A DNA stretch of 18,404 nt. It comes from a virus. Under the pieces are notes generated by a model. It worked only from the letters and a program-made list of their open reading frames with translations. It was not told the DNA's origin and did not search any database. How positions within the stretch are numbered: the stretch's first letter is position 1; the number at the start of each line of letters is the position of its first letter. Positions 395 to 18,404 of the stretch are shown here, piece after piece. The position numbers and the translations under genes were made by a program. Location: the UHGV virus genome UHGV-0256895, one strand, 5' to 3'.

Positions 395-876
395 GACAGC
401 AGCCCTCCCACCGTTTTACTGATATCGCTTAAGGCAGACGTTGCCGTGTCCTGCAGATTATTCAGTTGCGCACTGAGATCACCGAACATATCGGACAGGG
501 ATTCATCCACCCGTTTGAGCGACAGGGTGAACTCAATCCGGCGCGGCATACCGTCGCGGAAAAACTCCGTTTTAGTCTGATTCAGTCCCTCAATCACATA
601 CATGCCGTAAATCGTGCCGCTGCCTTCAATCAGGGGCCATGCTTTCCCCTGTTCTGCCATCTGCTCCAGTACCAGCAACGACAGCCTGCCGCCTGTTATC
701 TCCGGCATAAGAACACCAGAAAGCGTCAGCATGTCGTTGTCCGGTCCCAGAAACTGCGTGGACGGACGTCGGTTGACCCGGCTGTTTGCCGCATGTCGCC
801 AGCTGCGTTGATACTGCAGTTCCTGATACGGCACAGTGCGCAGCATAAACACGTACAATCCCAGCACCATCATCAT
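391..876 (-). CDS. U: Tail protein gpU
   Basis: 161 aa ORF in the track, immediately downstream of the tape measure gene in the conserved FETUD order; size matches P2 gpU. Confidence 0.8.
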   Translation of the reverse strand: MMMVLGLYVFMLRTVPYQELQYQRSWRHAANSRVNRRPSTQFLGPDNDMLTLSGVLMPEITGGRLSLLVLEQMAEQGKAWPLIEGSGTIYGMYVIEGLNQTKTEFFRDGMPRRIEFTLSLKRVDESLSDMFGDLSAQLNNLQDTATSALSDISKTVGGLLS

Positions 877-3800: not shown

Positions 3801-3950
3801 AGCCTGCTTATTCAGTTCTTTGAGGCTGTTTCGGGTATTCTGAATTGCGCCAGCCAGCTCTTTCGAACTGGCCTGTGCAACACGGAATGGGCGGGTGAGT
3901 TTGTCAACCGCATTAAGAATGACCTGCAGCCGCAGGTTGTTATCACTCAT
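873..3950 (-). CDS. T: Tail tape measure protein gpT
   Basis: 1025 aa ORF; N-terminal coiled-coil-like Q/A/K/E/R-rich region, central Ala/Gly/Leu-rich hydrophobic repeats, C-terminal domain; position between E/E' and U. Confidence 0.9.
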   Translation of the reverse strand: MSDNNLRLQVILNAVDKLTRPFRVAQASSKELAGAIQNTRNSLKELNKQAGRIDEFRKTRSQLAITANNLNAAREEAAKLATQFAATNRPTAAQAKLFSQAKTRVQELQQTYNGLLGAVQRQRQALKESGIDTRQLSSAQRELKKNAEETRQALEGQQKALKRLGEQQARMNAAREQYSRRLEVRDRIAGAGATTTAAGLAMGAPVMAAVKSYTSMEDAMKGVAKQVNGLRDDNGNRTARFYEMQDAIKAASEQLPMENGAVDFAALVEGGARMNVANPDDSWEDQKRDLLAFASTAAKAATAFELPADELSESLGKIAQLYKIPTRNIEQLGDALNYLDDNAMSKGADIIDVMQRLGGVADRLDYRKAAALGSTFLTLGAAPEVAASAANAMVRELSIATMQSKSFFEGMNLLKLNPEVIEKQMTKDAMGTIQRVLEKVNALPQDKRLSAMTMLFGKEFGDDAAKLANNLPELQRQLKLTAGNDALGSMQKESDINKDSLSAQWLLVKTGAQNTFSSLGETLRQPLMDILYTVKSITGALRRWVEANPELTGTLMKVAAVVAAVTVGLGTLAVALAAVLGPLAVIRLGFSVLGIKTLPSVTAAVTRTSSALSWLAGAPLALLRRGLASSGNAAGLLTAPLSSLRRTASLTGNVLKTVAGVPVALLRSGLSGLRAVAVMFMNPLAALRGGLAAAGAVLRVLASGPLAMLRVALYAVSGLLGALLSPIGLVVTALAGVALVVWKYWQPITAFLGGVVEGFKAAAGPISAAFEPLKPVFQWIGDKVQALWGWFTDLLTPVKSTSAELQSAAAMGRRFGEALAEGLNMVMHPLDSLKSGVSWLLEKLGIVSKEAAKAKLPESVTRQQPATVNADGKVMMPSGGFPSWGYGFAGMYDSGGYIPRGQFGIVGENGPEIVNGPANVTSRRNTAALAAVVAGMMGVAAAPAELPPLHPLALPAKGGEAMVSRAATVPPAQRIEAPTQIIIQTQPGQSAQDIAREVARQLDERERRLKAKARSNYSDQGGYDA

Positions 3951-4379
3951 CGTTGGCCCCGCTTCTCTGAATCGCTTTATACCGCCATTCCAGCACTTCG
4001 GTCAGCGGCATAACGTCAGTAACGGATGGCGGCCAGTGAAAGATGGTGGCGATATCAGCCACCAGATCGTCAACCGTCAGGCTGTCGGTAAACCGGCAAG
4101 CACCGACTTCTTCAACAAAAAAGTGACAACCTCAACCGACATGGCAGTGAGATCTGCCGGGTCCATCTCTGCAATTTCCTGTGCAGTCAGTGCCGGACTG
4201 GAGATACGGGGGATCACGGTCATCATCGCGTTCACATCCATATCCATAATGGCCTGCAGGCGTGTACCGCGCAGCGCACCGGACTGCGGTTTACGCAGCA
4301 CAATTTCGGTGATTTCTGTTTTACCGCGCTTGATGGGGGTATCCAGTTGAATAGTCTTTTCAGTCTGCTTATCGCTCAT
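3943..4379 (-). CDS. E': gpE+E' fusion made by a programmed -1 ribosomal frameshift
   Basis: From the heptamer at 4122..4116 the -1 frame stays open for 57 codons (VEEVGACRFTDSLTVDDLVADIATIFHWPPSVTDVMPLTEVLEWRYKAIQRSGANDE) and stops at 3945..3943, overlapping the T start codon (ATGAGTGA). Confidence 0.65.
4077..4379 (-). CDS. E: Tail assembly chaperone gpE (zero-frame product)
   Basis: 100 aa ORF directly upstream of the tape measure gene; ends ...VEVVTFLLKKSVLAGLPTA with a T-run slippery site near its 3' end. Confidence 0.8.
   Translation of the reverse strand: MSDKQTEKTIQLDTPIKRGKTEITEIVLRKPQSGALRGTRLQAIMDMDVNAMMTVIPRISSPALTAQEIAEMDPADLTAMSVEVVTFLLKKSVLAGLPTA
4116..4122 (-). other. Slippery heptamer T_TTT_TTG for the E/E' -1 frameshift
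   Basis: Minus strand reads act ttt ttg ttg in the E frame; T TTT TTG fits the X_XXY_YYZ pattern, lies 13 codons before the E stop, and the -1 frame downstream is open to the T start. Confidence 0.6.
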
Positions 4380-4433
4380 TTTGCTGTCCTGTAAATTGGG
4401 TTCTGGCGCGGTATCCCGCGCCGTTCAGATACA

Positions 4434-4949
4434 TCAGAGGCCGAGGGCGTTGCGGTGCGCTTCCATCAGGTCCACACCGTCCACAATTTCCACCATGTTG
4501 ATAAGGTCCACTTCATAGAGCACCTCACCATTGATGGTCAGCTTCGCGTAGCTGTTGGTACTGGTCACTTTGGTGGTGTTGCTTTCGCCCGTCTTCCACT
4601 CGCCGGAATCCACTTCTTTGTGACGTCCACGCACCACAAGCTCCACGGCCTGCACTTCCCCGGTATCGTCACGCTGGATAGAGCCGGTAAAGCGCAGCTG
4701 AATGCCATCTACCGTGGCTTTGCCCATCTGCTTAAACAGCAGCAGTTCAGTACCACCAATGGAAAATTCTGTGTCCAGCGCACTGTCATCAAGCCCCAGA
4801 TCCACATCCACTGCACCCGGCATTCCGCCGCCGCGATACTTCTCATATTTGCGGGTGAATTTCGGCAGCGTCAGCGACTCAACGATCCCCTGCCAGTTGT
4901 TCCCGTCGTTAAACAGGTTCAGATGTTTTAATTTGCGTGGTAAAGCCAT
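4434..4949 (-). CDS. FII: Tail tube protein gpFII
   Basis: 171 aa ORF (MALPRKLKHLNLFNDGNNWQGIVESLTLPKF...), between sheath and E; size and sequence consistent with P2 FII. Confidence 0.9.
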   Translation of the reverse strand: MALPRKLKHLNLFNDGNNWQGIVESLTLPKFTRKYEKYRGGGMPGAVDVDLGLDDSALDTEFSIGGTELLLFKQMGKATVDGIQLRFTGSIQRDDTGEVQAVELVVRGRHKEVDSGEWKTGESNTTKVTSTNSYAKLTINGEVLYEVDLINMVEIVDGVDLMEAHRNALGL

Positions 4950-5235
4950 GTTGTCCCCTTACGCGCTGACCTGGCTGGCGAAATTCACCAGGTACTGATC
5001 GGTGATGCGCTGGCGCAGCATCAGATTTTCAAGTGGCGGCACTGGCGTGTAGTCATAGTCGATGGTGAGTTTTCCGGCTTTCAGCGTGTCTTTGTCGTTC
5101 ACCGACTCATCCAGCCAGCAATCACCACCAATGAGATAGCCCTGACTGACCAGGCTGCGTATTTTGGCGCGGATACCTTCGATAATGTCGCGGGCCAGCG
5201 ACGGGTTAAGCGGTTTATCCACCGCCCACATGTGT

Positions 5236-5315
5236 GCTTCTGCCATTGTGTCCGTCAGCACCTGCGCCGTGCGGGTGTAGTTTTCGAAGGCAAAAAGCGG
5301 ATCATCGCTCAGACA
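5236..5315. repeat. Left copy of a perfect 80 bp inverted repeat inside FI (native-orientation copy)
   Basis: Plus 5236..5315 is the exact reverse complement of 5518..5597 (checked base by base, 80/80); encodes [27 protein letters not shown] in the minus-strand sheath frame. Confidence 0.9.
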
Positions 5316-5517
5316 TGCACTTGGTCTGCGTGCCAAAATTGATGAGCAGACCGGGTGGCACAAAAGCCTGTCCAACGTGGGCGTGAACGGTGTCACCGGA
5401 ATTTCTGCAGATGTGTTCTGGGATCTGCAGGACCCGGCAACCGATGCAGGTCTGCTGAACCAGAACGACGTCACCACGCTTGTGCGTAAAGACGGTTTCC
5501 GCTTCTGGGGTTCCCGC

Positions 5518-5597
5518 TGTCTGAGCGATGATCCGCTTTTTGCCTTCGAAAACTACACCCGCACGGCGCAGGTGCTGACGGACACAATGGCAGAAGC
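5518..5597. repeat. Right copy of the perfect 80 bp inverted repeat inside FI (inverted copy)
   Basis: Reverse complement of 5236..5315; encodes the same 26 residues on the plus strand, continuous with the inverted segment 5317..5517. Confidence 0.9.
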
Positions 5598-6248
5598 GTG
5601 TCCCAGCCAGTAAAGTCGGGCCAGATCAGCATTCCTTCGCGCTGGCTGAAGTTTTCACGGTAAGTGATCGCCTCCTGTACCGTCTTGCAGCCATACGCTG
5701 ACAGGTAAGCAAACCCACGCAGGCTTTGCGCCACGCTCAGCAACTCAGTCGCAACGGCTTTGTTATCGTGACCTGGCACGCCGAGAATGCGCGGTTTAAC
5801 GCCGAGCTGTGACTGGGCAGATAACAGAGCTTTCATGCCTGTTTTTTTACCTTCAGCAGTCACTGCGCCGATGATATTGGTCGTGGTTTCTTCTTCCGTT
5901 TCACCCTGCGGCACACGCACAACAACGGTCACGGGTTTTGCCTGGTCAGCGATGGCATCCAGCGAACGGGCCAGCGTGCCGGACTCACCCGCTTTACCGC
6001 TGGCAGTCAGCACATCAGTGATCAGCACAGGTTTGTTAAGAGGAAACATTTTTGCATCGGCATCATCGCCCGTGCAGACCATGCCCACGATGGCGGTGCT
6101 CACCGTGGTAATGGATCGGGTGCCTTCGTTGACTTCAACAACGCGCACCCCGTGGTGGTAATCCTGAGCCATAGTGGCGAACCTCCTGATTGGATTAGGC
6201 TTCGCCCTATGTTGAAGTGATTGTGCCTGACAAACAGCTAAGCGCAGT

Positions 6249-6266
6249 TGTACCGTTATTCACACA
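6249..6266 (-). promoter_or_regulatory. Candidate Ogr-type late promoter element (TGT-N12-ACA) for the FI-FII-E-T-U-D operon
   Basis: TGTACCGTTATTCACACA, centred about 85 bp upstream of the FI start codon (6172); P2 late promoters carry this dyad near -55. The motif alone is expected by chance a few times in 18 kb; position is what supports it. Confidence 0.4.
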
Positions 6267-6314
6267 AAATGACGGTATTTGTCTACTTGCAGGGATAATC
6301 AAAATAATGCTGAT

Positions 6315-6887
6315 TCAGGGGGATTCATTACTCTTATTTGCCGGAAATTTTCTATAAATTGTGGAAACACCCACATCAAAAATCAGTGCAATACGCTGTC
6401 TTGATTCTCCGGCCTCGAGTAAACGCCCAATCTGTGCCCACTGTTCGGTGGTCAACTTAGGACGGCGTCCACCTACTCTGCCTTTGGCACGAGCTGCAGC
6501 CAGCCCTGCCCTGGTACGTTCAACTATCAGTTCGCGTTCCATTTCAGCCAGGGCACCCATGACATGAAAAAAGAAACGGCCCATTGGGGTACTGGTATCA
6601 ATACTGTCAGTCAGGCTTCGGAAATTCACACCACGCTGGCGCAACTCCTCTATCAGCGTAACAAGATGCCGCATACTGCGCCCCAACCTGTCCAGCTTCC
6701 AGACAACCAGCGTGTCTCCTGCCGATAGTGTCCTGAGCAGCTTTTTCAGCCCCGGTCTGTCGGACTTAGTGCCACTGATTTTATCCTCAAAAATCCGCTC
6801 ACATCCCGCGCAGTTCAGTGCATTACGTTGCAAATCGGTGTTCTGGTCATTTGTTGACACGCGTACATAGCCAATAAGCATGATCAT
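6315..6887 (-). CDS. Serine DNA invertase of the Gin/Pin/Cin/Hin family
   Basis: 190 aa ORF starting M(IM)LIGYVRVSTNDQNTDLQRNAL..., the characteristic N-terminal catalytic motif of the invertase subfamily of serine recombinases, with a C-terminal HTH-like region; true start may be the third Met (6881). Located beside an invertible tail-fibre segment. Confidence 0.85.
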   Translation of the reverse strand: MIMLIGYVRVSTNDQNTDLQRNALNCAGCERIFEDKISGTKSDRPGLKKLLRTLSAGDTLVVWKLDRLGRSMRHLVTLIEELRQRGVNFRSLTDSIDTSTPMGRFFFHVMGALAEMERELIVERTRAGLAAARAKGRVGGRRPKLTTEQWAQIGRLLEAGESRQRIALIFDVGVSTIYRKFPANKSNESP

Positions 6888-6936
6888 CCCCCTGAATAAA
6901 AACCGGAGATGATGCCAGTTAGCCGTTATCTCTGCA

Positions 6937-6962
6937 TTTTCATAAACGTTGGTTTGGGAGAG
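6937..6962. other. Invertase crossover site 1 (gix/hix-like, 26 bp)
   Basis: TTTTCATAAACG TT GGTTTGGGAGAG: two AAAC/GGTTT half-sites around a central dinucleotide as in hixL/gix; sits between the invertase start and the silent tail-fibre segment; matches site 2 at 19 of 26 positions in inverted orientation. Confidence 0.6.
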
Positions 6963-7298
6963 GGAGCAAAATTAGGCGCAGCGGTGTGTGTGGCCGGCTC
7001 TACAGGCTATATGACTATCCCGGCAATGGTCGCCGGGAAAGAACGGGTGATCATATTGCAGTGGTTTGGTGCTGCTACAACTGATTATGTGACACCAGTA
7101 ACTGCGAATTTCCCTATTGCATTCCCAAATGAGTGCATGATTCCGTTATTTAGTGATGTATCAACTGGGGCAGTTGATTTGAGTTCTACAGCCGCATATA
7201 GCTTAGCGGTGGGCCGATCATACTATACGACGGTAACAAGAACTCAGATTACATGTGCTGGCTACGGTGGCTTTAGAGTTTTCGCGATTGGATGGTGA
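6951..7298 (+). CDS. Silent alternative tail-fibre C-terminal segment (Sv'), no start of its own; would fuse to the constant part of H after inversion
   Basis: Plus frame from the crossover core gives [69 protein letters not shown]...GFRVFAIGW, sharing ILQW, FPIAFP and GGF..FA.G motifs with the expressed H C-terminus. The track ORF 6909..7298 covers it. Confidence 0.6.
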
Positions 7299-7303
7299 TT
7301 AAT

Positions 7304-7723
7304 ATGTTTTATTCTGCAAAAGAAAATGCGTTCTACGCTGATGAGCTAAAAAGTATTTATGAAAATGCAGGTAGCTGGCCTGACGATGCCGTTGAAGTAG
7401 ACTATTCCGTATTCGTTGAGTTTGCCGGAGAATCACCTAACGGAAAATTACGCGCTCCTAATTCTGATGGTTTACCTGAATGGATAGATATTCCCGAACC
7501 AACTGAAGAGGAAATTATTGCGTTGGCAGAAGCCGAAAAATCGCGACTGCGTGCTTCAGCTGACTCTGAAATAGAATGGCGGCAGGACGCCGTTGATGCG
7601 GGGATCGCGACGGAAGAAGAAACTGTTTCATTAGCCGAATGGAAAAAATACCGGGTGCTGCTGATGCGAGTTGATACAGCAGACCCGGACTGGCCTACTC
7701 CTCCGGCGACTCAGGCCAGTTGA
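7304..7723 (+). CDS. Alternative tail fibre assembly protein (Tfa, U'-like), silent orientation
   Basis: [28 protein letters not shown]... parallels the N-terminus of the expressed Tfa ([30 protein letters not shown]...); lies directly after the silent fibre segment. Track ORF starts 4 codons earlier at 7292. Confidence 0.7.
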
Positions 7724-8126
7724 TATCTGGTGCGCTGGATATGTCCACAGATTCCAGCGCATCGAGATAATCCAGCCACTCGTTATACTGGGCCTTCTCG
7801 TCGTCTGTAAGTCGCCCCAGCGCAGCTTTACCCGGCCACTGCTTGCTGTTTATATACTCATTAGCCTGATCGATACGATACTGTTTTTCAGCTTCAGCTG
7901 CTGCGATTTCCTCCTCATGGCTTAAAGGTGGAATGTCTACCCATGCCGGCATTCCATCCTCAGTAGCTCCACGAGTTTTACCCTCTGGTGGCATCCCCGA
8001 ATATTCAGTGAATGTCTCATCTGAGACGGCTATGAGATCGTCAGGCCAGTTTCTACTCGCTTCATAAACATCTCTGAGCTCATCAGGGTAGAAAGCGTTA
8101 TTTAATGCTGAATAAAAATAAGCCAT
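7695..8126 (-). CDS. G: Tail fibre assembly protein (Tfa, gpG / Mu U-like), expressed orientation
   Basis: 143 aa ORF immediately downstream of the tail fibre gene; Tfa-like N-terminus; converges on the alternative Tfa with a 29 bp 3' overlap. Confidence 0.75.
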
Positions 8127-8129
8127 TTA

Positions 8130-9545
8130 TTAATACCCCACAGCAAAATAGTTAAACCCGCCAGCGCCGATGGATGATTCAGCGTTGGTTCCTGTCTGAT
8201 AAGCGCGTAGCTGGAAATTAGTTCTCGTAAAATCCTGGGCGGTTAACGCAAAACCTTGACCTGTACCGCCAACACTCTGGTCTGTTGCAACAACACATAG
8301 CGCCCTGGTTGGAAACGCAATCGGGAATGATACTGTTTCTGGGGATGTTTTCGTTTTGGCTATTGCCCATTGAAGAATTAACCCGCCTGGCAGGTATTGA
8401 TACCCCGAATCGGCTCGCTGATTACCAAATGAAGACATGTCCGGAATCTGTCCGGAACCAGTGCCAACATTTTTTTTTGCCGCATCTCCTAAACCAAGGT
8501 ATGCGAGAAGACCAGCGACATCCTTTCCACTCAAATTAGTCAGCGTATTGTCCAGCGGTTGTTTACCTGCCAGCGCATTAAGCATTGTCGTGGCAAAGTT
8601 CGGATCATTCCCCAACGCCGACGCCAGTTCGTTCAGTGTATCCAGTGCCGCAGGTGCAGAACCTACCATTGCTGCAATCGCCGATTTCACAAAAGCCGTG
8701 GTGGCAATCTGTGTATTGTTGACCGACTGTGCAGCAGTGGGGGCTGTTGGCGTTCCGGTGAGTGCCGGACTCGACAACGGCGCTTTCAGTGCCAGCGCAT
8801 TGTTAATGGTGGTACTGAAATTCGGATCATTGTTAATGGCTGCGGCTATTTCTTTCAGCGTGTCCAGCGTGGCTGGCGCACCATTAATAAGAGCCGTCAG
8901 TGCCGCCTGAACAAACGCGGTGGTCGCAACCTGCGTGGTGTTATTCCCTGCCGCTGGAGTTGGCGCTTTTGGTGTCCCGGTAAACGTCGGACTTTCTTTG
9001 GGTGCATACTGTGAATGCGGGTCCGGTGCGGCAAGATGTTTTGCCATCTGATCATCCACGTACACCTTCAGCTCCAGTACCTTGTCATCCACATACTTGC
9101 GGGTTGCCAGCACTACGGCAGGGTCGATTTTCAGGGTGATATTGTCCGTGCTGCTGGTAATCAGCACCATGCGCACGGTCTGGGTACGCCCGCTGCCTTC
9201 AGCCAGTTGCGGCTTATAGCTTTCCGGGCAGTTGCCCACGGCAATCAATGCCCCGGACTCATCAAACAGGCCCACTTCACGTATCCACCAACCGCCCTCG
9301 TTTTCAGGGATCACCTGTTCAGCAATAATCTGGCTGCTGTTCTGCGGGTCGATATAGAGCATATTCAGCGCAGCCCGGCGTTTCTCATTTACCAATGCTG
9401 TCTGCTTGGCGTCCGGCGTTGGCAATGTTCCGCCGCCATCGCCCACCGCCATATGGGTAATTTTTAGCGGCACACCGAGCGCGGCGGCGCTGGCAAGTTT
9501 CGCCGCGCCAATATCCGTCAGCAGGGTATAAAATTTTGTGCTCAT
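8130..9545 (-). CDS. H: Tail fibre protein gpH (constant N-terminal part plus currently expressed variable C-terminal segment)
   Basis: 471 aa ORF; N-terminus MSTKFYTLLTDIGAAKLASAAALGVPLKITHMAVGDGGG... is typical of P2-type fibres; two tandem repeats of about 72 aa; crossover site embedded about 116 codons from the stop. Confidence 0.85.
   Translation of the reverse strand: MSTKFYTLLTDIGAAKLASAAALGVPLKITHMAVGDGGGTLPTPDAKQTALVNEKRRAALNMLYIDPQNSSQIIAEQVIPENEGGWWIREVGLFDESGALIAVGNCPESYKPQLAEGSGRTQTVRMVLITSSTDNITLKIDPAVVLATRKYVDDKVLELKVYVDDQMAKHLAAPDPHSQYAPKESPTFTGTPKAPTPAAGNNTTQVATTAFVQAALTALINGAPATLDTLKEIAAAINNDPNFSTTINNALALKAPLSSPALTGTPTAPTAAQSVNNTQIATTAFVKSAIAAMVGSAPAALDTLNELASALGNDPNFATTMLNALAGKQPLDNTLTNLSGKDVAGLLAYLGLGDAAKKNVGTGSGQIPDMSSFGNQRADSGYQYLPGGLILQWAIAKTKTSPETVSFPIAFPTRALCVVATDQSVGGTGQGFALTAQDFTRTNFQLRAYQTGTNAESSIGAGGFNYFAVGY
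8484..8509. other. Invertase crossover site 2 (gix/hix-like), inside the tail fibre gene at the constant/variable boundary
   Basis: ATCTCCTAAACC AA GGTATGCGAGAA on the plus strand; inverted relative to site 1; falls on the GLG codons of H (..LAYLGLGDAAKK..), the point where the silent segment (..[12 protein letters not shown]..) would join in frame. Confidence 0.6.
8556..8990 (-). repeat. Tandem duplication of about 72 codons inside the tail fibre gene
   Basis: Protein segments ..NTTQVATTAFVQAALTALINGAPATLDTLKEIAAAINNDPNFSTTINNALALKAP and ..NNTQIATTAFVKSAIAAMVGSAPAALDTLNELASALGNDPNFATTMLNALAGKQP are clearly homologous. Confidence 0.7.
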
Positions 9546-10147
9546 GGATTCACTCTCATTGTGTCAATAACATGGACCGCCCCGCCTTCATGCGCGGTGC
9601 CGCCGGAAATAATTGTTTCGTTGATATACGGATAGATCGTGATTTCTTCGCCAAGATAGCTGGCGGCCCCCACCCAATGCGGACCGCTGGTCTGCAGATT
9701 GATGGACATGCCGATCATGTGACGGCTACATGGTTTGGCATCGCTTATCAGCCGCTCAAGTTCCAGATAGGTATCTTCAGTGATGCCCTGGTCCTGCACG
9801 CCGATATCCAGGCGAAACGTGCCCGGTGTTTCTCCGGTCTGCCACCACTCAATAATGCGGATCAGGAATCCGAACGGTTCCACCACCCGCCGCACGGCAC
9901 TGGTAGTTCCTTTATGCTGATGAATATAAAAAGCATCCTTCACTACCTGGCGTTTGACGCTTTCTGTCCAGCCCTCGTCCCAGCGATCCACAGAGAACGC
10001 CCAGGCGAGATAAGGCAGGAAGCTGACCGGACAGGTAGCCGGATTCCACAAGTCACGCAGCGGCACCTGCAGATCAGAAATCCCGCTACAGGTTTGCGCC
10101 AGTCGGCGCTCCAGTGAAGTTGAACCCGGTGGCAGCAGACTATTCAT
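9542..10147 (-). CDS. I: Baseplate assembly protein gpI
   Basis: 201 aa ORF between J and H in the conserved V-W-J-I-H order. Confidence 0.75.
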   Translation of the reverse strand: MNSLLPPGSTSLERRLAQTCSGISDLQVPLRDLWNPATCPVSFLPYLAWAFSVDRWDEGWTESVKRQVVKDAFYIHQHKGTTSAVRRVVEPFGFLIRIIEWWQTGETPGTFRLDIGVQDQGITEDTYLELERLISDAKPCSRHMIGMSINLQTSGPHWVGAASYLGEEITIYPYINETIISGGTAHEGGAVHVIDTMRVNP

Positions 10148-11048
10148 CCGTTCCTCCGTTGGTTACGCTCCACTGCGTACATGATGCCGCCTGTGTTTTG
10201 TTCAGGACCACATCCGCCAGCGGAGAAGCCAGTTCCACACGTTGAACACCCTCAACATGCAGAGCAGCAAAGATGGCGCTACGGCGAATATCCCGACCAA
10301 GCCTCGTCTGGCTGGCAATGTACTTCTGCAGACTGGCTTTTGCCGCTGCCATTACCGGCTCTGCTTCCGGTCCCGGATAGAGAAAAATGGTGGCTTCCAC
10401 GCGATACGGGATGATTTCTGCGCTGCGAACCGTAAGACGGTCAGCCACCGGGCGGACGTTCTCACTGTTCAGAGCTTTTTCCACCACGTCCAGCAGGTCT
10501 TTTTCTGCAGTTCCATCGCCTTCGCGGCTAAGGACAGTCAGCACCACCTCTGCAGGTGCCGGGCTGGTTGCACTGGCATCCGCCACCCGACCGTCGGCGC
10601 TTCGGGCATGAAATTCATAAGCTGCAGTTGGCCCCGCAACTGAAAGCCCTTCAAAGGCTGCAGGCACACGCAGGCGTAACGCTTCATCGCTTTCCATCAC
10701 AGCTGCAACGGGCGGCACAGCGTCATTATCAGCAGGCGTCACCGTCAGGCGTTTCACGTTGTAGTTGGCGGCGAGCTGGTCCAGATCGCCCCCTATGGCA
10801 TAAGCCACCATCACCGCCTGCGCAGCTTCGTTAATGCGCTGGCGCAGAAGCAACTCACGGTAAGCATTCTCCTGCAACAATTTGGTGACGGGTTCAGATT
10901 CCAGTTCCAGCGTGCGGATCACTGCTTCCTGCTCATCTTTCGGATGAAGCGCCACAAATTCTGCCTTGCGTTCGGCAAGCAGCGTCTCAAAGTCCGGCAC
11001 ATCCACAATCTGCGGCGCAGGCAACTGCGAAAGGTCAATCACTGCCAT
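10140..11048 (-). CDS. J: Baseplate assembly protein gpJ
   Basis: Track ORF 10140..11087; the likely start is the internal Met giving MAVIDLSQLPAPQIVDVPDFETLLAERKAEF..., which resembles the remembered P2 gpJ N-terminus; C-terminal ..GRDIRRSAIFAALHVEGVQRVELASPLADVVLN.. also conserved. Confidence 0.8.
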   Translation of the reverse strand: MAVIDLSQLPAPQIVDVPDFETLLAERKAEFVALHPKDEQEAVIRTLELESEPVTKLLQENAYRELLLRQRINEAAQAVMVAYAIGGDLDQLAANYNVKRLTVTPADNDAVPPVAAVMESDEALRLRVPAAFEGLSVAGPTAAYEFHARSADGRVADASATSPAPAEVVLTVLSREGDGTAEKDLLDVVEKALNSENVRPVADRLTVRSAEIIPYRVEATIFLYPGPEAEPVMAAAKASLQKYIASQTRLGRDIRRSAIFAALHVEGVQRVELASPLADVVLNKTQAASCTQWSVTNGGTDE

Positions 11049-11394
11049 TCTCTGCTCCTGTTGATACGGAAAGGGAAACAGGCACACCGTTATTACGCCG
11101 CCCGGTCAGCTCCACCACCATTGAACCGTCAAAATTGCTGTTAATGGTGATGGAATCCAGCGTCAGCCGTGGCTCCCAGCGACTCAGCGCCACATACACT
11201 GCCGACATGACCTGCAGGCGTAATGCCGGATTTTGTGGCTGGTCTATCAGTGCCGACAGCAGGGAACCATATTCCCGACGGGCAATGCGGCTACCCTGCG
11301 GCGTCAGCAAAATGTCCCGCACCGACTGGCGCAGATGATCAATATCAGTAATGGCTTTACCGCTGGTATTGTTCATCCCGCTATAAAGCGTCAT
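11035..11394 (-). CDS. W: Baseplate wedge protein gpW (gp25-like)
   Basis: 119 aa ORF MTLYSGMNNTSGKAITDIDHLRQSVRDILLTPQGSRIARREYGSLLSALIDQP... with a W/gp25-like pattern; overlaps V stop and J start. Confidence 0.8.
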   Translation of the reverse strand: MTLYSGMNNTSGKAITDIDHLRQSVRDILLTPQGSRIARREYGSLLSALIDQPQNPALRLQVMSAVYVALSRWEPRLTLDSITINSNFDGSMVVELTGRRNNGVPVSLSVSTGAENGSD

Positions 11395-11969
11395 ACCGGG
11401 CCTCCGGTTGTGTCGCCGCCTTTCAGGACGTCAGTATGCTGATGCGCATCAACCACGATCCCGTTAGAACTCATCGCTCCGCCGCCCTGGGTAACGCCAC
11501 CATTGATCACCACTTCGCTGTTAATGCGCGTGCGGTCAGCCTCCAGTACAAACTCACTGGTTTTCATGGTGATGTTGTCAGCGGCCTCAATGACCATTGA
11601 TTTGATGCCCCTGACATACCAGCGCCCGGTAGTGGGTTCGTATTCAAACCAGCCGCCGTCAGGATGTTCTGTCACGCAGGCGTCTGCCGACGTCGACGGT
11701 GGTGCGAACTGATTCGAATAGACAGCGGGCAGCGCAAAGGCAGTTTCCAGATTGCCGCCCAGACTCAGCAGCACCACCTGCTCACCTTCCGATGGTCGCC
11801 ACCATGTGCGGGCATTCCCGGCACGCAGCGTCAGCCAGCTGATCCAGTTGGTTTCAAGCTCGCCCGTTTTCACCCGGCAAAGCCAGTTTTCCCGGTCCAC
11901 TTCGGTGACTACACCAGTGCGGATCAGGTTGGTGATAAGGCGCATGATTTCGGTTAGTTGTGCGTTCAT
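11391..11969 (-). CDS. V: Baseplate spike protein gpV
   Basis: Track ORF runs to 12077 with a TTG start, but similarity to P2 gpV begins at the internal ATG (11969): MNAQLTEIMRLITNLIRTGVVTEVDRENWLCRVKTGELETNWISWLT... Confidence 0.75.
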   Translation of the reverse strand: MNAQLTEIMRLITNLIRTGVVTEVDRENWLCRVKTGELETNWISWLTLRAGNARTWWRPSEGEQVVLLSLGGNLETAFALPAVYSNQFAPPSTSADACVTEHPDGGWFEYEPTTGRWYVRGIKSMVIEAADNITMKTSEFVLEADRTRINSEVVINGGVTQGGGAMSSNGIVVDAHQHTDVLKGGDTTGGPV

Positions 11970-12015
11970 AGGGTTAGGTTGCACGGACCTTGAATCTATG
12001 GCATCAATACGTCCT

Positions 12016-12033
12016 TGTGTGGTAAATGACACA
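12016..12033 (-). promoter_or_regulatory. Candidate late-promoter dyad (TGT-N12-ACA) upstream of V
   Basis: TGTGTGGTAAATGACACA, centred about 55 bp upstream of the V start codon, which leaves almost no leader if the P2 geometry holds; overlaps the putative promoter and 5' end of the opposite-strand cargo ORF. Motif alone is weak evidence. Confidence 0.3.
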
Positions 12034-12064
12034 AATACAATTCCAATCAAAGAAAGGTAAAAGA

Positions 12065-12595
12065 ATGAGCCATCCAATTGATTATTACGCTATAGAAGAA
12101 CACGCAAGAATAATTGAGCAATTATGCTGTTCATCTGAATTTTATTTACAGCGTATATATTCCACACAGAAAGTATATGATGGTTCTATAGTAACTGAAT
12201 TTGAAATGGAGGAGTTATCGTACAACGGATGGTTGGAATATACCATTAGCAACAATCTTATTAGCCTTTGTACAAAACTACGAATTCTCCAAGACACTAG
12301 TGAACATGAGTGGAACCCAGATTACTCACCTGAGAAAGAAGCATTTGAAGAACATGAAAATATACTTTTTGTTATAGATGGTCATGTTAAAGATTCTATA
12401 CGCGAATGCTGCAATAAAATTATTCACGCATTAAGTTTTGAGTTAACAAAAAAGACCGGCAAAAATGGAATAAAATATTGGGACGGTTCTATTATTGCTT
12501 CTGGGGTTCAAAACAAAAAAAACTGGAAAATTAAAATAGACCTTTTCCCTTTTTGCCAAAGCATAAAAAGTTATTTAAGTTTATTAAGAGCGTAA
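12065..12595 (+). CDS. Hypothetical protein, AT-rich cargo (moron) ORF in the S-V junction; function unknown
   Basis: Track ORF 12026..12595; the RBS-supported start is ATG 12065 (GAAAGG 7 nt upstream), giving a 176 aa soluble, acidic protein (MSHPIDYYAIEEHARIIEQLCCSSEFYLQRIYSTQKVYDG...). Strongly AT-rich and on the opposite strand to all flanking tail genes; no similarity I recognise. Confidence 0.6.
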   Translation: MSHPIDYYAIEEHARIIEQLCCSSEFYLQRIYSTQKVYDGSIVTEFEMEELSYNGWLEYTISNNLISLCTKLRILQDTSEHEWNPDYSPEKEAFEEHENILFVIDGHVKDSIRECCNKIIHALSFELTKKTGKNGIKYWDGSIIASGVQNKKNWKIKIDLFPFCQSIKSYLSLLRA

Positions 12596-12600
12596 ACATT

Positions 12601-13053
12601 CTAATTTTTCATCAATAAATACTTTAAAAGTAAATCTCTTACTTCATTTTCAGTATGTTCATTTAAACCCAGCAATTTTCGGGATGGATACTTAATGACT
12701 CCCCCCTTTGGACTGACGCGATCGCGCAGACCGTAGTGATGAACACGGGCAATACGCTGTACCTTACCTTCAAACTGTACGCTGGCAGAATCCGCGCTGG
12801 CGGCAGTTCTCAGGTATTTTGTGGTGCGCAGCTTTGCAAACATCTGACGTTTGATGCGCCCCTTCTTGCTGCGTGCTGTTACCCTGCGCGGCTCATAACT
12901 GCTGCCATCTGGATTGCGCTGCATCCTGATATTCTGCTGCTGTGTCCGGCGCAGTTCCTGCGCCAGCTGGCGCATCATTCGGCTTCTTGCGGCTGGTTCC
13001 AGATTCGCCAGCAAAGCACTCAGCCAGTCGTCCACCTTCTGCAGTTCAGCCAC
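12601..13053 (-). CDS. S: Tail completion protein gpS
   Basis: 150 aa ORF with ..LEPAARSRMMRQLAQELRRTQQQNI..NPDGSSYEPRRVTARSKKGRIKRQMFAKLRT..VQRIARVHHYGL.. resembling P2 gpS; the last ~20 codons lie in AT-rich DNA. Confidence 0.8.
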   Translation of the reverse strand: MAELQKVDDWLSALLANLEPAARSRMMRQLAQELRRTQQQNIRMQRNPDGSSYEPRRVTARSKKGRIKRQMFAKLRTTKYLRTAASADSASVQFEGKVQRIARVHHYGLRDRVSPKGGVIKYPSRKLLGLNEHTENEVRDLLLKYLLMKN

Positions 13054-13477
13054 GTTTCACCGTCCACATTTCTTCAGGTTCATCGGGTTCCGCTACTGCT
13101 TCAACGCTCGACACACTTCCGTCAGTGCTGACCAGCACACGTTCCGTCAGTTGCAGGTTGAGGCTGATATCACAGACATCGTTGCGCAGAATATCCACCT
13201 CAAAGGTGAATAACTTTTCCCGTAACGCCGGATTATTGATGGCATCGGGCTGGTTATCACGCAGCCACAGCAAAACCGGGGCCATCAGCAGATTCTGGTC
13301 GCCGCTGAAATCCTCAATCACCACGTTGAGGGTATAACGGTACTCCCATGACATGGAGCTGGCCCCCGTGGCAACCAGCGAACCGTTATCCACAAACAGA
13401 TGCAGCTTATCCGGGTTATTGCGGACATAAGGCACTGCTTTATTGAGGGCGTGGCGCAGGGATTGTGGTTTGTTCAC
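13046..13477 (-). CDS. R: Tail completion protein gpR
   Basis: Track ORF 13046..13498; likely start is GTG 13477 with AGGAG 7 nt upstream (..VNKPQSLRHALNKAVPYVRNNPDKLHLF..); gpR-like. Confidence 0.75.
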   Translation of the reverse strand: MNKPQSLRHALNKAVPYVRNNPDKLHLFVDNGSLVATGASSMSWEYRYTLNVVIEDFSGDQNLLMAPVLLWLRDNQPDAINNPALREKLFTFEVDILRNDVCDISLNLQLTERVLVSTDGSVSSVEAVAEPDEPEEMWTVKRG

Positions 13478-13730
13478 TGTTTCGCTCCTGACACGCAATA
13501 ATCATGTCCACTTTGTCTGCACAGACCGCCCAGGCGGCCTCCGTTTCATCCAGCAATGCGTTCAGATCACCGTTAGTGCGCGGCGCTGCCTGCTCCAGCC
13601 GACACGGCGTCACTCGCGGACAACCACTGACGGTAAGCTGCACCTCCGGTGAGTGCCGGACGTTCCCGCAGCCGGATAATGTCAGCAGGCAAAGGAGTAT
13701 CAGCCCAGCGGCGTAAATCCTCGTTCTCAC
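13440..13730 (-). CDS. lysC: Outer-membrane lipoprotein spanin (LysC/Rz1-like o-spanin)
   Basis: 96 aa ORF with signal peptide and lipobox (MRTRIYAAGLILLCLLTLSGC), Pro-rich mature part; starts inside lysB in another frame and runs past its stop, overlapping the R start. Confidence 0.65.
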   Translation of the reverse strand: MRTRIYAAGLILLCLLTLSGCGNVRHSPEVQLTVSGCPRVTPCRLEQAAPRTNGDLNALLDETEAAWAVCADKVDMIIACQERNSEQTTIPAPRPQ

Positions 13731-14001
13731 GTTTCAGTTCCTCGATCCGGTGTTGTCGTTGTCTCAGCAGCGCGCTGGTTTGTTCTGCTTCGGCATAGAG
13801 CCGCGCCTGCTCCCGGTTATTGGTTTCAGCCAGAATGGACAGACTGATCAGCTGGCTATTTTTCTTCGTTAGTTCGTGCGCTTTACTTTTCAGCGCCGTG
13901 CGCTGCGTTTCGATGGTGTGGCTGGCGCTGTTAAGCCGCCACGACTGCCAGCCCAGCGCAACGAGTGCCAGCGCCGCCACTACCGCCAGCGCACGCGTCA
14001 T
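13573..14001 (-). CDS. lysB: Inner-membrane spanin (LysB/Rz-like i-spanin)
   Basis: 142 aa; N-terminal TMD (ALAVVAALALVALGW) followed by a charged coiled-coil-like region; directly downstream of the endolysin. Confidence 0.7.
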   Translation of the reverse strand: MTRALAVVAALALVALGWQSWRLNSASHTIETQRTALKSKAHELTKKNSQLISLSILAETNNREQARLYAEAEQTSALLRQRQHRIEELKRENEDLRRWADTPLPADIIRLRERPALTGGAAYRQWLSASDAVSAGAGSAAH

Positions 14002-14513
14002 AATCCAGCTCCTTTAAGGCACCAGGCCATCTCCCGCGCACGGCGGTTATCCAGCCCCTGATTAAACACACCTTTCACATAAACCCAGCGCGGCAACTGT
14101 CGGCACGCTTCTGCCCAGCGCCGCTGATTGAGCAATTTCACCAGCGTAGAACTGCAGGCATTGCCCGTTCCCACGTTGAAGGCAAACGACACCGTAGCGT
14201 CATATACCTTCTGCGGCGGCTGTTGCTTCACACACCTTTCCAGCGCCCGCTCCACACGCAGCACGTTGGAAATAAGCCCTTCTGCTGCCTGTCGTTCCGT
14301 GATTGTTTTGCCGGGAATGACGCCCGACGTATTTCCAATGCCGTCGGTCCAGACACCCGCGCTGCACTGATACGGCTGCAGACGACAACCTTCGTAATCG
14401 GCAATCAGTTTCAGCCCCTCCACGGAGGTGTGAAGCTGCTGAAACCCCGGCAGCGTGGCAGCAATAGCCAGCACGGCCCCGACAAGGCAGCGTTTAACGA
14501 TTGATGGATTCAT
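13998..14513 (-). CDS. K: Endolysin gpK, lysozyme-like with N-terminal signal-anchor-release (SAR) domain
   Basis: 171 aa; weakly hydrophobic Gly/Ala-rich N-terminus (CLVGAVLAIAATLPG) then a lysozyme-like core (..EGLKLIADYEGCRLQPYQCSAGVWTDGIGNT..); start overlaps the holin stop. Confidence 0.8.
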   Translation of the reverse strand: MNPSIVKRCLVGAVLAIAATLPGFQQLHTSVEGLKLIADYEGCRLQPYQCSAGVWTDGIGNTSGVIPGKTITERQAAEGLISNVLRVERALERCVKQQPPQKVYDATVSFAFNVGTGNACSSTLVKLLNQRRWAEACRQLPRWVYVKGVFNQGLDNRRAREMAWCLKGAGL

Positions 14514-14709
14514 AGTCCTCCCGCGAAATCTGCCCGTCGCGCAGAAGCTGGTAGGCTTTGTGTTTGTAGTACCAGTTGATAGCCAGCATCAGCACACCAA
14601 TCATCAGGCCGCCCAGCGTTGATGCATCCTTGATGGACAAATCGCCCAGCCAGGCCAGCACGACGGCGATGCAATACGTGATAAAGGCGCTGATTCGCTC
14701 AAGCGTCAT
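14494..14709 (-). CDS. Y: Holin, class II / pinholin-like (two TMDs)
   Basis: 71 aa with two hydrophobic segments (ISAFITYCIAVVLAWL; GGLMIGVLMLAINWYY) and a charged C-terminus, immediately upstream of a SAR-type endolysin. Confidence 0.7.
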   Translation of the reverse strand: MTLERISAFITYCIAVVLAWLGDLSIKDASTLGGLMIGVLMLAINWYYKHKAYQLLRDGQISREDYESINR

Positions 14710-14712
14710 AAT

Positions 14713-14916
14713 TCAGTCCCATAGCTGGACGGTCTGCACGGTGGTGGTTGTCGGAATGTCCGGCAGCTCCACCTGCAGCCCGTGAGGTAAAAAGGGGCCG
14801 TATTCGGCAAGCCCCGGATTTGCCTTCAGTACCTGCTCCGTGACACCCTGCGTGCGCCCGTAATGACGCCAGCAAAGTGCGTCCACCGTGTCATACTGAT
14901 GCGCACGCACTTTCAT
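14713..14916 (-). CDS. X: Tail protein gpX
   Basis: 67 aa ORF, same size and position as P2 gpX between L and the lysis genes. Confidence 0.7.
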   Translation of the reverse strand: MKVRAHQYDTVDALCWRHYGRTQGVTEQVLKANPGLAEYGPFLPHGLQVELPDIPTTTTVQTVQLWD

Positions 14917-15380
14917 CAGATAAGCTCCACTGTGCAGTGCGGCGCATCCTGCACCCGGCTGATGGCCCAGCGGGCGTCACGCCATAAATCACCGCTTGCT
15001 TCCGCCAGTTCCTCGCCTCGCTTCGCACCGGATGCCGTGGCGTCATAGTCCTGGTAACGTTCGTTGAGCATGGCGCGTGCCCAGCAGTAAACCGCGTTGA
15101 AATAGTGCTGAATGCGCTCGCTTTTGCCGTCCAGTTGTTCCGCCGGGACTTCTGCCAGCGAGGCATACCCCAGCATCTGCTGGCGTCTGCGAAACTCATA
15201 CAGCTCTGCGTTGACCTCCGAAATTGCCGACAGCGCAACCTGCTTTAAACGCGGCTGCGTCACCGTGCCGTCAGTGCGCATGACACTGCGAAACTCCGAC
15301 AGGTCCACATCAGGCCAGAACGGCGTATTTCTGATGATTTCCGCCTGTTCCGGTGCCTGTTCTGGCGCAACAAACTTCAT
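14916..15380 (-). CDS. L: Head completion/stabilisation protein gpL
   Basis: Track ORF 14916..15443; likely start ATG 15380 with AGGAG 8 nt upstream (MKFVAPEQ...); ..NAELYEFRRRQ..LWRDARWAISRVQDAPHCTVELI resembles gpL. Confidence 0.8.
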   Translation of the reverse strand: MKFVAPEQAPEQAEIIRNTPFWPDVDLSEFRSVMRTDGTVTQPRLKQVALSAISEVNAELYEFRRRQQMLGYASLAEVPAEQLDGKSERIQHYFNAVYCWARAMLNERYQDYDATASGAKRGEELAEASGDLWRDARWAISRVQDAPHCTVELI

Positions 15381-15475
15381 GCTGCTTTCTCCTGAAATAA
15401 AGGGCGGTGGACGGGGTTTTGATGTGGCAGTGCCTTTCGCCACCCCGTGCCGCCCGTGCGCGGGGGCACGTTCTG

Positions 15476-16068
15476 TCAGCGGCTATCATTGCGCAGTCTG
15501 CGCTCCAGCTGCTGTTTGTCTTTTTTCACGCCACAGCGGGGATCGAGCTGTAACGCATGGTTGAGATGATTAAGGGCGGAAGCCGGATTACTTTCACTCA
15601 GGACAGCGCCAATCGCTTTATGCAGACGCGCCCGTGACTGGTCCGGCATATCCAGACCGTCTGTCAGCTCCAGCGTCTGCAGCAGCAGATCGACATCAAA
15701 GCCGGTAGTGGCAAGCATTGCGCTCTGCGCTGCGTCTGCCATTTCCTCTGCCAGCACGGTCTGCACGTTGCGGTTACCCAGCGGCATCACCCAGCCATGA
15801 CGCAGGGCATGACGCCCGATCTCCAGCGCTCCGACATAATCTCCGGCATCAATGCGCCACAGCATCACGTACATCAGCACGTCATCCTGTTGAGCGCCTC
15901 CGGCAGCCAGGACACCCTCCGCCCAGGCGGCGTATTTCGGCAGCAGCTCCACCTTGATTTCCGCTTTTTTGACCGTGGACTGAACGCCCTTGAGACGGCG
16001 GCGGTCTTCTGCCAGTTGCAGCAGCATCAGGTCATAGCCCGACGCGTGGCGAACGCTGCGCGCTGCTG
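15476..16068 (-). pseudogene. M: Terminase small (endonuclease) subunit gpM body; first 18 codons are separated from it by the N/M inversion
   Basis: Minus frame ..SAARSVRHASGYDLMLLQLAEDRRRLKGVQSTVKKAEIKVELLPKY.. is gpM-like from 16068 down to the stop at 15476 but has an in-frame stop just upstream of 16069; the native start (MSLSPARQHRLRVQAECQ) lies on the plus strand at 16276..16329. The track ORF starts at the internal Met 16027. Confidence 0.7.
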
Positions 16069-16272
16069 ATCACCCGTCTGGATAACCTGTCCATTTACTG
16101 GCAGGAAGACACCCGCCGCCGTTCGGTTATCGACAACCCGAAACGTGACCGGATTGAAAATTTTGAATCCGTTAACGAAGCCTATGTGGTTGAGGACTAC
16201 CGCTGCGCCGCACTGGTGGAAAACATCCAGATTGGCGACTTCAGCGCCGCCGCAGCAGAAACCGGAGCGTAA
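16069..16272 (+). other. N: Displaced C-terminal 67 codons of capsid gene N, on the opposite strand
   Basis: Plus frame ITRLDNLSIYWQEDTRRRSVIDNPKRDRIENFESVNEAYVVEDYRCAALVENIQIGDFSAAAAETGA* matches the remembered C-terminus of P2 gpN; the frame is open without a start codon and is absent from the track. Confidence 0.7.
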
Positions 16273-17047
16273 ACCATGAGCCTGAGTCCCGCACGGCAGC
16301 ATCGCCTGCGCGTTCAGGCTGAATGTCAGACAGCAGCTCACGACCGCAAATCACCACCAGATCGTCATCGTCCTGGTAGACCACGTCGATAAGCTCATTG
16401 ACCGCATCCATCACCACGGCGTCCAGGTTGGCATATTCGCCACCTTTCCCGACTTTCACCGCACCCGGTGTGGTTTCACCGCCCGTGGTGGTGCTGCCCA
16501 TGACGTGATCCGGTGCATCCTCACGGATTTTCTGCAGCCAGCCTTTGTTCACATCCTGCAGCAGCGGGTTTTCGCTACGGTTGGAGGTTTTCGCACGCTT
16601 CACGCCGTTAAAGCCGATCATGATGCGGTCCAGTGCCTGGCGTTTCACGATGGCGTCACGGATACGCACCTGGAAATCCTGAAACTTCGCCCACAGGTCC
16701 AGCTTCGCGTAGGTCAGCACCGTGTCAAAGTTGGTCTGTTCGCATTTGTATTCCACATCGATCATCAGCGTCGGATCGACAGGTTCACGCTCTTTCGCGG
16801 TGGTGTCAGTGGTTCCGGCAATGGTGCTGCCAACACCCAATCCAAGCAGCTGACCGGACTGCTCAGTCACTGGCGTGACGTTAATCAGCGTCAGGAAAGC
16901 GGCGGACTGCTGGATCTGGTCTTCCAGCGTCTGCTGCACAGACGGCTCTACGGTGAACTTGCTGGACAGTTCCTCAACTGCCACACCGTTCAGACGCGCC
17001 AGTTGCTGCAGGTAAGCGTTAAAAGCAAAACGGGTATTCTTCTTCAT
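16241..17047 (-). pseudogene. N: Major capsid protein gene N, N-terminal 239 codons intact; C-terminus displaced by the inversion
   Basis: Track ORF 268 aa; MKKNTRFAFNAYLQQLARLNGVAVEELSSKFTVEPSV...LVVICGRELL is gpN-like to about 16331; the last 29 codons (SDIQPERAGDAAVRDSGSWFTLRFLLRRR) are antisense of the displaced M start and N end. Confidence 0.8.
16276..16329 (+). other. M: Displaced first 18 codons of terminase small subunit gene M, on the opposite strand
   Basis: ATG 3 nt after the displaced N stop, MSLSPARQHRLRVQAECQ, resembling the gpM N-terminus; joins in frame to the minus-strand M body through the inverted repeat when the segment is re-inverted. Confidence 0.6.
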
Positions 17048-17063
17048 TGGGTTTTATGCTCCA

Positions 17064-17807
17064 TCAGCAATTGGTCAGAGTGTCAGCGGGGGCGTTGCCG
17101 CCTGTTGCACGCTGGCGGTAGTCCTGGCGGCTGTCTTCATGACTCAGCTTATCCACCAGTTCGTTAAAGGCGGTTTGCTGCTCCTGCAGAGCAGTCTCCA
17201 GCTCAGACAGGCGTTCTTCCTGCTCAGACAGGGATTTTTCGGTGCGCGTGCTCAGGTTCTGCTGCTCAGTGGCGACCAGTTCCACGGCCTTATGCACATC
17301 AGAGAACCGGACGTCATCGGACTGCTCTTTTTTGGTAAACAGCGCCGTGACGCGGGCAAACAGGGACGGCTTGTCCTCCTGGATTTCTTCCAGTTCGATC
17401 ACCGTTTCCTCTGCAGCGGTAAAAAGATTGGCAGGATTCTGCTTGCGGTTTGCCAGCGGGTTATGGGCTGCACTGGCGCTGAATGTCAGCATTTCCGTAC
17501 CCAGACTGGCGGGATCATCAGTGGCAGCCAGGCCGACCAGGTAGGCTTTGCCCGTATCAGCAAACTTCGGGCTGACTTCCATAGAGGTGAATAATTTCTG
17601 GCCTTTTTTCACCAGTTCCACCAGGGACTCCGTTGGCTCAACGTCGGCATACAGTGCCATCTTGCCTGCCAGCGGACCTTCCGCGATTTCTTCAGCAAAC
17701 CCTGCGGTTTGTGTGGTTGTCGGTACAAATACCGCGCATTGTTTCACTGCCCCCATCACCGCAACCATAAGGCTCCAGTAAGTTTTTTCTAACGGAGCAC
17801 GGCTCAT
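17064..17807 (-). CDS. O: Capsid scaffold protein gpO (body); native 5' end uncertain
   Basis: Track ORF 17064..18029; from about residue 108 (..GFAEEIAEGPLAGKMALYADVEPTESLVELVKKGQKLFTSMEVSPKFADTGKAYLVGLAATDDPASLGTE...TGGNAPADTLTNC) it is clearly gpO-like. Upstream of about 17710 similarity is lost; the first 74 codons of the track ORF are antisense of terminase P. Confidence 0.7.
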   Translation of the reverse strand: MSRAPLEKTYWSLMVAVMGAVKQCAVFVPTTTQTAGFAEEIAEGPLAGKMALYADVEPTESLVELVKKGQKLFTSMEVSPKFADTGKAYLVGLAATDDPASLGTEMLTFSASAAHNPLANRKQNPANLFTAAEETVIELEEIQEDKPSLFARVTALFTKKEQSDDVRFSDVHKAVELVATEQQNLSTRTEKSLSEQEERLSELETALQEQQTAFNELVDKLSHEDSRQDYRQRATGGNAPADTLTNC

Positions 17808-17853
17808 GACAGTGAAAGCAAAGCGTTTTCGCATCGGGGTGGAAGGTGCCACT
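17806..17853 (+). other. O: gpO N-terminal motif encoded on the opposite strand (possible third inverted fragment)
   Basis: Plus ATG 17806: MTVKAKRFRIGVEGAT matches the gpO N-terminus as I remember it (MAKKVSKFFRIGVEGDT); after codon 16 similarity ends. The 52-codon frame (to 17964) is too short for the track. Confidence 0.45.
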
Positions 17854-17921
17854 AGAAAGTTGCAACCGTTCACAGCTGGAAAAAACGCGACAAGTGGGGT
17901 GACTATGGGCCGCTGGATCAG

Positions 17922-18404
17922 ATGCAGCTCACCACCGCCGCCCGCTACTGCCAGCTCATTATGAAGGAGCACAAAGAAGGGAAAGATTTCAAAGAAATTG
18001 ACCTGCTGGCGCGCCAGTCGGAGCGCCACGCGCGGATCGGCAAGTTTAACAATGGCGGCAACGAAGCCGACTTAAACCCTAACGTCGCCAACCGCAACAA
18101 AGGGCCGCGCCGTCAGCCGGAAAAGAATGTTTTCACCGATGAACAGATTGAGAAGCTGGAAGAAATCTTCCATTCCTCCATGTTCAACTACCAGCGCCAC
18201 TGGTGGGAAGCCGGAAAAACCAATCGCATCCGCAACCTGCTGAAGTCTCGCCAGATCGGCGCGACCTTTTACTTTGCCCGTGAAGCCCTGATTGACGCCC
18301 TGCTGACCGGACGTAACCAGATTTTCCTTTCCGCCAGTAAGGCACAGGCCCACGTCTTTAAGCAGTACATCATCGACTTCGCCAAAGAAGTCGAGGTGGA
18401 GCTG
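17922..18404 (+). CDS. P: Terminase large (ATPase) subunit gpP, N-terminal part; runs off the window edge
   Basis: Plus frame open from 17856 to the window end; first ATG 17922 ([20 protein letters not shown]...); contains a Walker-A-like ..[40 protein letters not shown].. Not in the track because it lacks a stop in the window. Confidence 0.75.

Follow-up and report, generated by a model that had tools for sequence, protein, structure and literature searches.

The reversed start of gene O in a P2-like prophage sequence lies within a deletion-inversion-deletion that probably belongs to the sequence record

Introduction

How does the beginning of a phage gene come to lie on the strand opposite to the rest of that gene? 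The question is raised by the right-hand part of an 18,404-nucleotide stretch of viral DNA (the window), where the scaffold gene O of a P2-like phage appears to start on the plus strand and to continue on the minus strand, next to gene P. An earlier note had taken this for a possible third inversion in the window, with an 8-bp inverted repeat flanking an 89-bp segment that holds the O start. In phage P2 and P2-like phages two Ogr-dependent promoters with a TGT-N12-ACA element serve the O/P junction, PO driving ONMLKRS and PP driving PQ, and TGT-N12-ACA is the consensus element of the Ogr-dependent P2 late promoters (PMC3931495). In gpO the maturation protease is formed by the N-terminal domain (residues 1-141 in P2), and viable particles require gpO (PMC7552001). 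A reversed O start could be one state of a genetic switch, a natural variant of gpO, a scar in a dying prophage or a fault of the sequence record, and here we weigh these readings against an exact map of the breakpoints.

Results

The window contains the late-gene region of a P2-like prophage of the type of Escherichia phage Cartapus (NC_070909; Peduoviridae, Elveevirus), its nearest named relative, which is the prophage adjoining ssrA in E. coli LF82. The forward direction of the phage corresponds to the minus strand of the window: leftward from ~17800 follow O (scaffold/protease), N (capsid), M (small terminase), L, the lysis genes and the tail and baseplate genes, and further leftward a Gin-type invertase with its tail-fibre segment, the sheath, the tube and the tape measure. 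P (large terminase) runs rightward on the plus strand and off the end of the window. We aligned the window by blastn to Cartapus, to LF82 and to the ENA metagenome scaffold ERZ28659622 XUQI22-1_SAMN14445755_METAG-scaffold_333 (scaffold_333), which was reached via the exact tail-fibre protein of the window and is numbered here with the prefix S along the reverse complement of our locus L004. Scaffold_333 carries O, P, N, M and the sheath gene intact, with predicted products of 277 aa for gpO, 352 aa for the capsid protein, 216 aa for the small terminase and 390 aa for the sheath.

In this alignment the window resolves into seven exact blocks of scaffold_333, each 100.000% identical, three of them reverse-complemented, and blastn revealed no other difference. 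Block 1 (window 1-5315) equals S1913-7227, block 2 (5316-5597) is the reverse complement of S7148-7429, block 3 (5597-16059) equals S7468-17930, block 4 (16060-16323) is the reverse complement of S17950-18213, block 5 (16324-17700) equals S18336-19712, block 6 (17701-17854) is the reverse complement of S19861-20014, and block 7 (17854-18404) equals S20155-20705. To the sides of the three reverse-complemented blocks 19-148 bp have been lost or 80 bp duplicated. Cartapus/LF82 is 99.5-100% identical to the window per matching block, the tail-fibre segment excluded, and Cartapus differs from the window in that invertible segment (window 6971-8475) as well. At all three lesion sites both Cartapus and scaffold_333 are intact and collinear, in contrast to the window.

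The region also contains a natural inversion system of the Gin/Pin type (6315-8509). Its serine invertase gene lies at 6315-6887 on the minus strand, and gix-like crossover sites at 6940-6959 and 8487-8506, within imperfect inverted repeats (6937-6971 and 8475-8509), flank a tail-fibre and fibre-assembly segment whose content differs from that of Cartapus.

At the O/P junction, 442 reference bases (S19713-20154) have given way to a reverse-complemented copy of the 154 bases at their centre. This copy, window 17701-17854, matches the reverse complement of S19861-20014 exactly, and equally that of positions 20400-20553 in reference locus L003. The lesion is a non-conservative replacement, a deletion-inversion-deletion and not a simple inversion, set where the late operons O-N-M-L (head) and P-Q (terminase/portal) of a Cartapus-type prophage ordinarily diverge. 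On its left lies the O remnant (17064-17700, minus strand), which retains codons 67-277 with the stop codon, preceded by the final base of codon 66, is collinear with the reference inside exact block 5 and translates as the reference gpO starting at FAEEIAEG. At joint J3a (17700/17701) S19712 abuts the reverse complement of S20014 bluntly, with 0 bp shared, and the 148 bp missing there (S19713-19860) correspond to O codons 17-66. The inverted block comprises 105 of the 142 bp of intergenic, late-promoter DNA between O and P (17701-17805, plus strand), O codons 1-16 (17806-17853, plus strand), which are on the wrong strand and now directed into P, and one base of codon 17. Joint J3b (17853-17855, plus strand) sets the reverse complement of S19861 against S20155/6 with 1 bp shared and brings a TAG stop codon (17853-17855) into the P frame. 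Missing at J3b are 140 bp (S20015-20154), made up of the 37 bp of intergenic DNA directly upstream of the P start, P codons 1-34 and the first base of codon 35; what is left of P (terminase large subunit; 17854-18404, plus strand) runs from the second base of codon 35, has no start codon and exits the window. The two deletions add up to 288 bp, which means that the event was not conservative, and no complete gpO or gpP is encoded in the remaining DNA.

Part of what the earlier note had seen at this junction is borne out by the block map. The plus-strand ATG at 17806, which it had connected with the gpO N-terminus, opens MTVKAKRFRIGVEGAT, identical at 16 of 16 residues to the N-terminus of gpO in the near-identical LF82/Cartapus prophage (MTVKAKRFRIGVEGATTDGREIQ); since MTVKAKRFRIGVEGATTDGREIQREWL is how gpO begins in the LF82 prophage, where it is intact, the match represents the exact first 16 codons of O and not a vague resemblance. 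The O body (codons 67-277, 17064-17699) was correctly placed on the minus strand and P, from 17854, on the plus strand, and the impression that the divergent promoter region has no room reflects the loss of 37 bp of the intergenic DNA and the flipping of the other 105 bp. The proposed third inversion stands in part: an inverted segment with the O start is there and is the third lesion of its kind, but it did not arise by simple inversion at the 8-bp repeat. The arms themselves, GTTTTTTC at 17782-17789 and GAAAAAAC at 17879-17886, are present as claimed, but the segment that they enclose is not the inverted one, which is the 154-bp block, a match at 100% identity to the reverse-complemented reference. 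The left arm is a chance match within the inverted block and the right arm a chance match within collinear P sequence. The two arms both appear as GAAAAAAC on one strand of the intact reference, at a distance of 254 bp, and as direct repeats they would have been unable to bring about an inversion. The window contains 70 perfect inverted pairs of 8 bp whose arms are separated by 0-120 nt, with ~0.7 expected per 300 bp, and the 8-bp inverted repeat is thus at chance level. Re-inversion of the 89 bp had yielded a reading, LLEPYGCGDGGSETMRGICTDN, that seemed to resemble gpO. This resemblance is spurious, because the peptide (..LLEPYGCGDGG..RGICTDN..) is translated intergenic promoter DNA, and the 'further frameshift' invoked to reach the body of O is in reality the 148-bp deletion.

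The rearranged junction contains two chimeric frames. The O start codon sits in the palindrome TCATGA (17803-17808), which provides an ATG on both strands at the O start, and after the flip the minus-strand ATG at 17807 opens by chance a frame of 247 codons (17064-17807, minus strand) in which 35 codons of inverted intergenic DNA run on in frame into O codons 67-277. This false 247-aa 'GPO' ORF is one that annotation pipelines would be likely to report. Its exact protein has no record among 153 billion gene positions. On the plus strand, O codons 1-16 are fused out of frame to P sequence in an ORF of 52 codons (17806-17964), which is without a Pfam match. The O remnant (17064-17699, minus strand) matches the Pfam family Phage_GPO (PF05929) with an E value of 1.6e-75 and a score of 254.7 bits against a cut-off of 33.6, and the match covers only positions 64-268 of the 268-position profile, whereas the gpO of an intact relative covers positions 2-268. 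A complete N-terminal protease domain contiguous with the scaffold domain is therefore absent, codons 1-16 being on the opposite strand and codons 17-66 deleted. For P, the family domains are present, with the fragment at 17856-18404 matching Terminase_5 at positions 27-58 of 58 as well as Terminase_6N, but an intact 5' end with start codon and upstream late promoter is absent.

The biology underlying this locus is that of the well-known P2 O/P junction, and no new system is involved. The gene order is the same (sheath ... L, M, N, O | P), the products of O and P match the same families (Phage_GPO; Terminase_5 and Terminase_6N), and a TGT-N12-ACA dyad (TGTGTGGTTGTCGGTACA), mapped through the exact block from L003 20527-20544, is found between O and P at 17710-17727, where it would belong to a predicted Ogr-dependent PO/PP pair. 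Unlike the P2 junction, the window has the O start and 105 of the 142 intergenic bases flipped, and it lacks 37 bp of intergenic DNA, O codons 17-66 and P codons 1-34. The dyad lies within the inverted block and is reverse-complemented together with the O start, which faces P, and is thus not in the orientation needed for PO to read into O-N-M-L. If the DNA is real, the O-N-M-L operon would be severed from the flipped piece of promoter. A sigma-70 promoter scan of 17550-18000 returned no sites, as expected for activator-dependent late promoters.

The earlier note had proposed a comparison with the O-P region of intact relatives, and this comparison finds the normal collinear layout there and the departure confined to the window. 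The region is present in 1,190 of 5,426 complete E. coli genomes, none of which (0/1,190) has the arrangement of the window. The whole 901-bp O-P junction is collinear and ungapped, at 99.9-100% identity, in LF82 and six IMG/VR contigs, and three further loci hold 890, 469 and 288 bp of it, the last at 97.2%. A 33-mer across J3a and a 35-mer across J3b were both absent from IMG/VR, GTDB genomes and JGI metagenomes; as a positive control, the intact counterpart of J3a was recovered in eight IMG/VR contigs.

The O/P lesion is one of three of the same style within 18 kb, each of which puts the reverse complement of a nearby or overlapping stretch in the place of the original one. In lesion 1 (5316-5597), in the tail sheath gene, 240 reference bases have been replaced by the reverse complement of 282 bases, with deletion of 38 bp and creation of a perfect 80-nt inverted repeat (5236-5315 and 5518-5597). 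In lesion 2 (16060-16323), at the end of the capsid gene N and the start of the small-terminase gene M, 405 reference bases have become the reverse complement of 264 of them, with deletions of 19 bp and 122 bp. Neither the truncated sheath ORF of lesion 1 (5471-6172, minus strand) nor the chimeric ORF of lesion 2 (16241-17047, minus strand) has a record, and overall three lesion-made chimeric ORFs had no exact record among the 153 billion gene positions. One joint of each of these two lesions was scanned in IMG/VR and was absent. The bases shared at the six joints number 0, 1, 0, 0, 0 and 1. The 12 reference breakpoints have no consistent inverted repeat or common motif, only scattered 7-9-mers in G+C-rich sequence, and no inverted repeat relates 17700/17701 to 17854/17855.

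A Logan contig from the same BioSample (SAMN14445755), SRR11413006_3717 (our locus L005), corresponds to S9624-17933. Its end at S17933 (window ~16059-16063) lies 3 bp from the left breakpoint of lesion 2 (S17930), inside a small hairpin, GCCGCCCTCGCGGGCGGC, and we estimate the chance of such closeness at ~0.5% if breakpoints were random. The position of this contig end may be a coincidence, mark a break in coverage or in the graph at the hairpin, or signal real heterogeneity among the reads.

Discussion

A public contig that is base-identical outside the lesions, together with the normal layout in all relatives checked, points to either an artefact or the scar of a dead prophage and not to a genetic switch. 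The O/P lesion is not an invertible switch, and a programmed or site-specific segment, such as an O/P promoter switch flipped by a Gin/Pin-type invertase or through the 8-bp repeats, is refuted by the block structure and retains a very slight probability in our judgement. The phage does encode a serine invertase (6315-6887) with a natural invertible tail-fibre segment, and in Gin/Cin/Pin/Hin systems, too, a segment is found reversed. Inversion there neither adds nor removes bases and takes place between inverted crossover sites with an AAACC-NN-GGTTT core; the O/P block, by contrast, loses sequence, has no flanking sites and leaves both genes destroyed. Inversion by the invertase was rejected after a search for gix-like cores with up to 3 mismatches, whose only matches were the natural tail-fibre sites at 6940-6959 and 8487-8506. 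The 8-bp inverted repeat near the O start might seem to offer another route. A simple inversion between its arms is at odds with the exact block boundaries at 17701 and 17854, from which the arms lie away, with the chance level of the repeat and with its direct orientation in the reference. Moreover, the breakpoints at 17700/17701 and 17854/17855 have no inverted repeat, neither orientation of the block restores an intact O or P, and the flipped state occurs in no relative examined, be it the 1,190 genomes, LF82 or the IMG/VR contigs. Even less credible, to the point of being negligible, is a natural variant of gpO whose N-terminus is divergent and whose first residue is the minus-strand Met at 17807, the plus-strand MTVKAKRF being a coincidence. 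The uninterrupted 247-codon frame from this ATG into the O body invites such a reading, and the earlier note had named both a spurious plus-strand match and relatives that start O at this Met as outcomes that would speak against its own view. Every intact relative examined instead starts O at the same ATG, with MTVKAKRF, and alignment to these relatives refutes the variant: its first 35 codons are intergenic promoter DNA read backwards, its Pfam match begins only at profile position 64, its protein is on no record, and the reverse-complemented reference agrees at 100% identity with the 16 plus-strand codons and with all 154 bp.

The lesions are probably a feature of the sequence record rather than of a living phage. 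We prefer an artefact because every other base is identical to a public scaffold with the intact layout, and the lesion would most likely have originated in the record itself, whether by misassembly, from a chimeric template or through editing. A real, inactivating scar in a dead prophage is the less likely alternative. It would call for three independent deletion-inversion or duplication-inversion events in a single E. coli lineage or in part of the sampled population, where replication template switching or illegitimate end joining after double-strand breaks had put head, terminase and sheath genes out of action. Such decay would be in keeping with the common occurrence of defective P2-like prophages. 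Deletion-inversion-deletion and duplication-inversion-deletion are known outcomes of replication template switching, and multiple-displacement amplification produces inverted chimeras with intervening deletions; in both, as in the window, the reverse complement of a nearby stretch takes the place of the original one, with loss or gain at its flanks. The replacement by a nearby or overlapping reversed stretch thus fits the template-switch pattern, but template-switch variants and amplification chimeras usually leave a few bases of microhomology, and the joints of the window share 0-1 bp and have no inverted repeats. Template switching and the alternative end joining of E. coli normally use microhomology, and Ku/LigD end joining is, to our knowledge, missing in E. 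coli. Decay is also hard to reconcile with the lack of any point difference from an intact copy over 18.4 kb in the presence of three gross lesions, which would be unlike the usual course of prophage decay, and with the absence of the arrangement from every other genome and contig searched. We therefore consider physical rearrangement in a decaying prophage unlikely, and grant it the share that it has mainly on account of the Logan contig SRR11413006_3717, whose end lies within a hairpin, 3 bp away from one breakpoint. More doubtful again, and distinctly improbable, is that all three blunt lesions are physical and sit on one DNA molecule as the outcome of a burst of double-strand breaks, with fragments rejoined backwards without homology. 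Such breaks might have come, for example, from a host nuclease or from self-targeting in an abortive induction that killed the prophage in a subpopulation of gut E. coli, and the Logan contig end would then be the trace of a minority allele.

On the preferred reading, as an artefact of the record, the relevance of the lesion is one of quality control only. The gene calls across 17064-18029, with a false 'GPO' protein of 247-321 aa and a truncated terminase, would be wrong, and the window would be unfit for the mining of 'inversions'. If instead the DNA is physical, it would exemplify homology-independent inversion and deletion scars that inactivate an E. coli prophage, an uncommon finding, though not a new concept. 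The genes broken in that case are those for the O protease domain, the start of P, the sheath (5316-5597) and the N/M boundary (16060-16323), and such a prophage would presumably be unable to make particles. We consider it likely that the O/P lesion has no function, and nothing in it bears on the workings of P2 late promoters or of gpO.

Additional observations

Between the tail genes S and V the window carries an opposite-strand gene without a Pfam family (12026-12595, plus strand; 176 aa as called in scaffold_333). At the same spot relatives have genes for 399 + 116 aa, 271 aa, 268 aa (DUF6216), 429 aa or 381 aa, or nothing, and the site looks like a variable cargo hotspot. In a related prophage (locus L016, 549-1319; Logan ERR1789778_51) a reverse-transcriptase gene (RVT_1, 256 aa) and a 59-aa ORF lie just past ogr at the prophage end, and may constitute cargo of the retron type.
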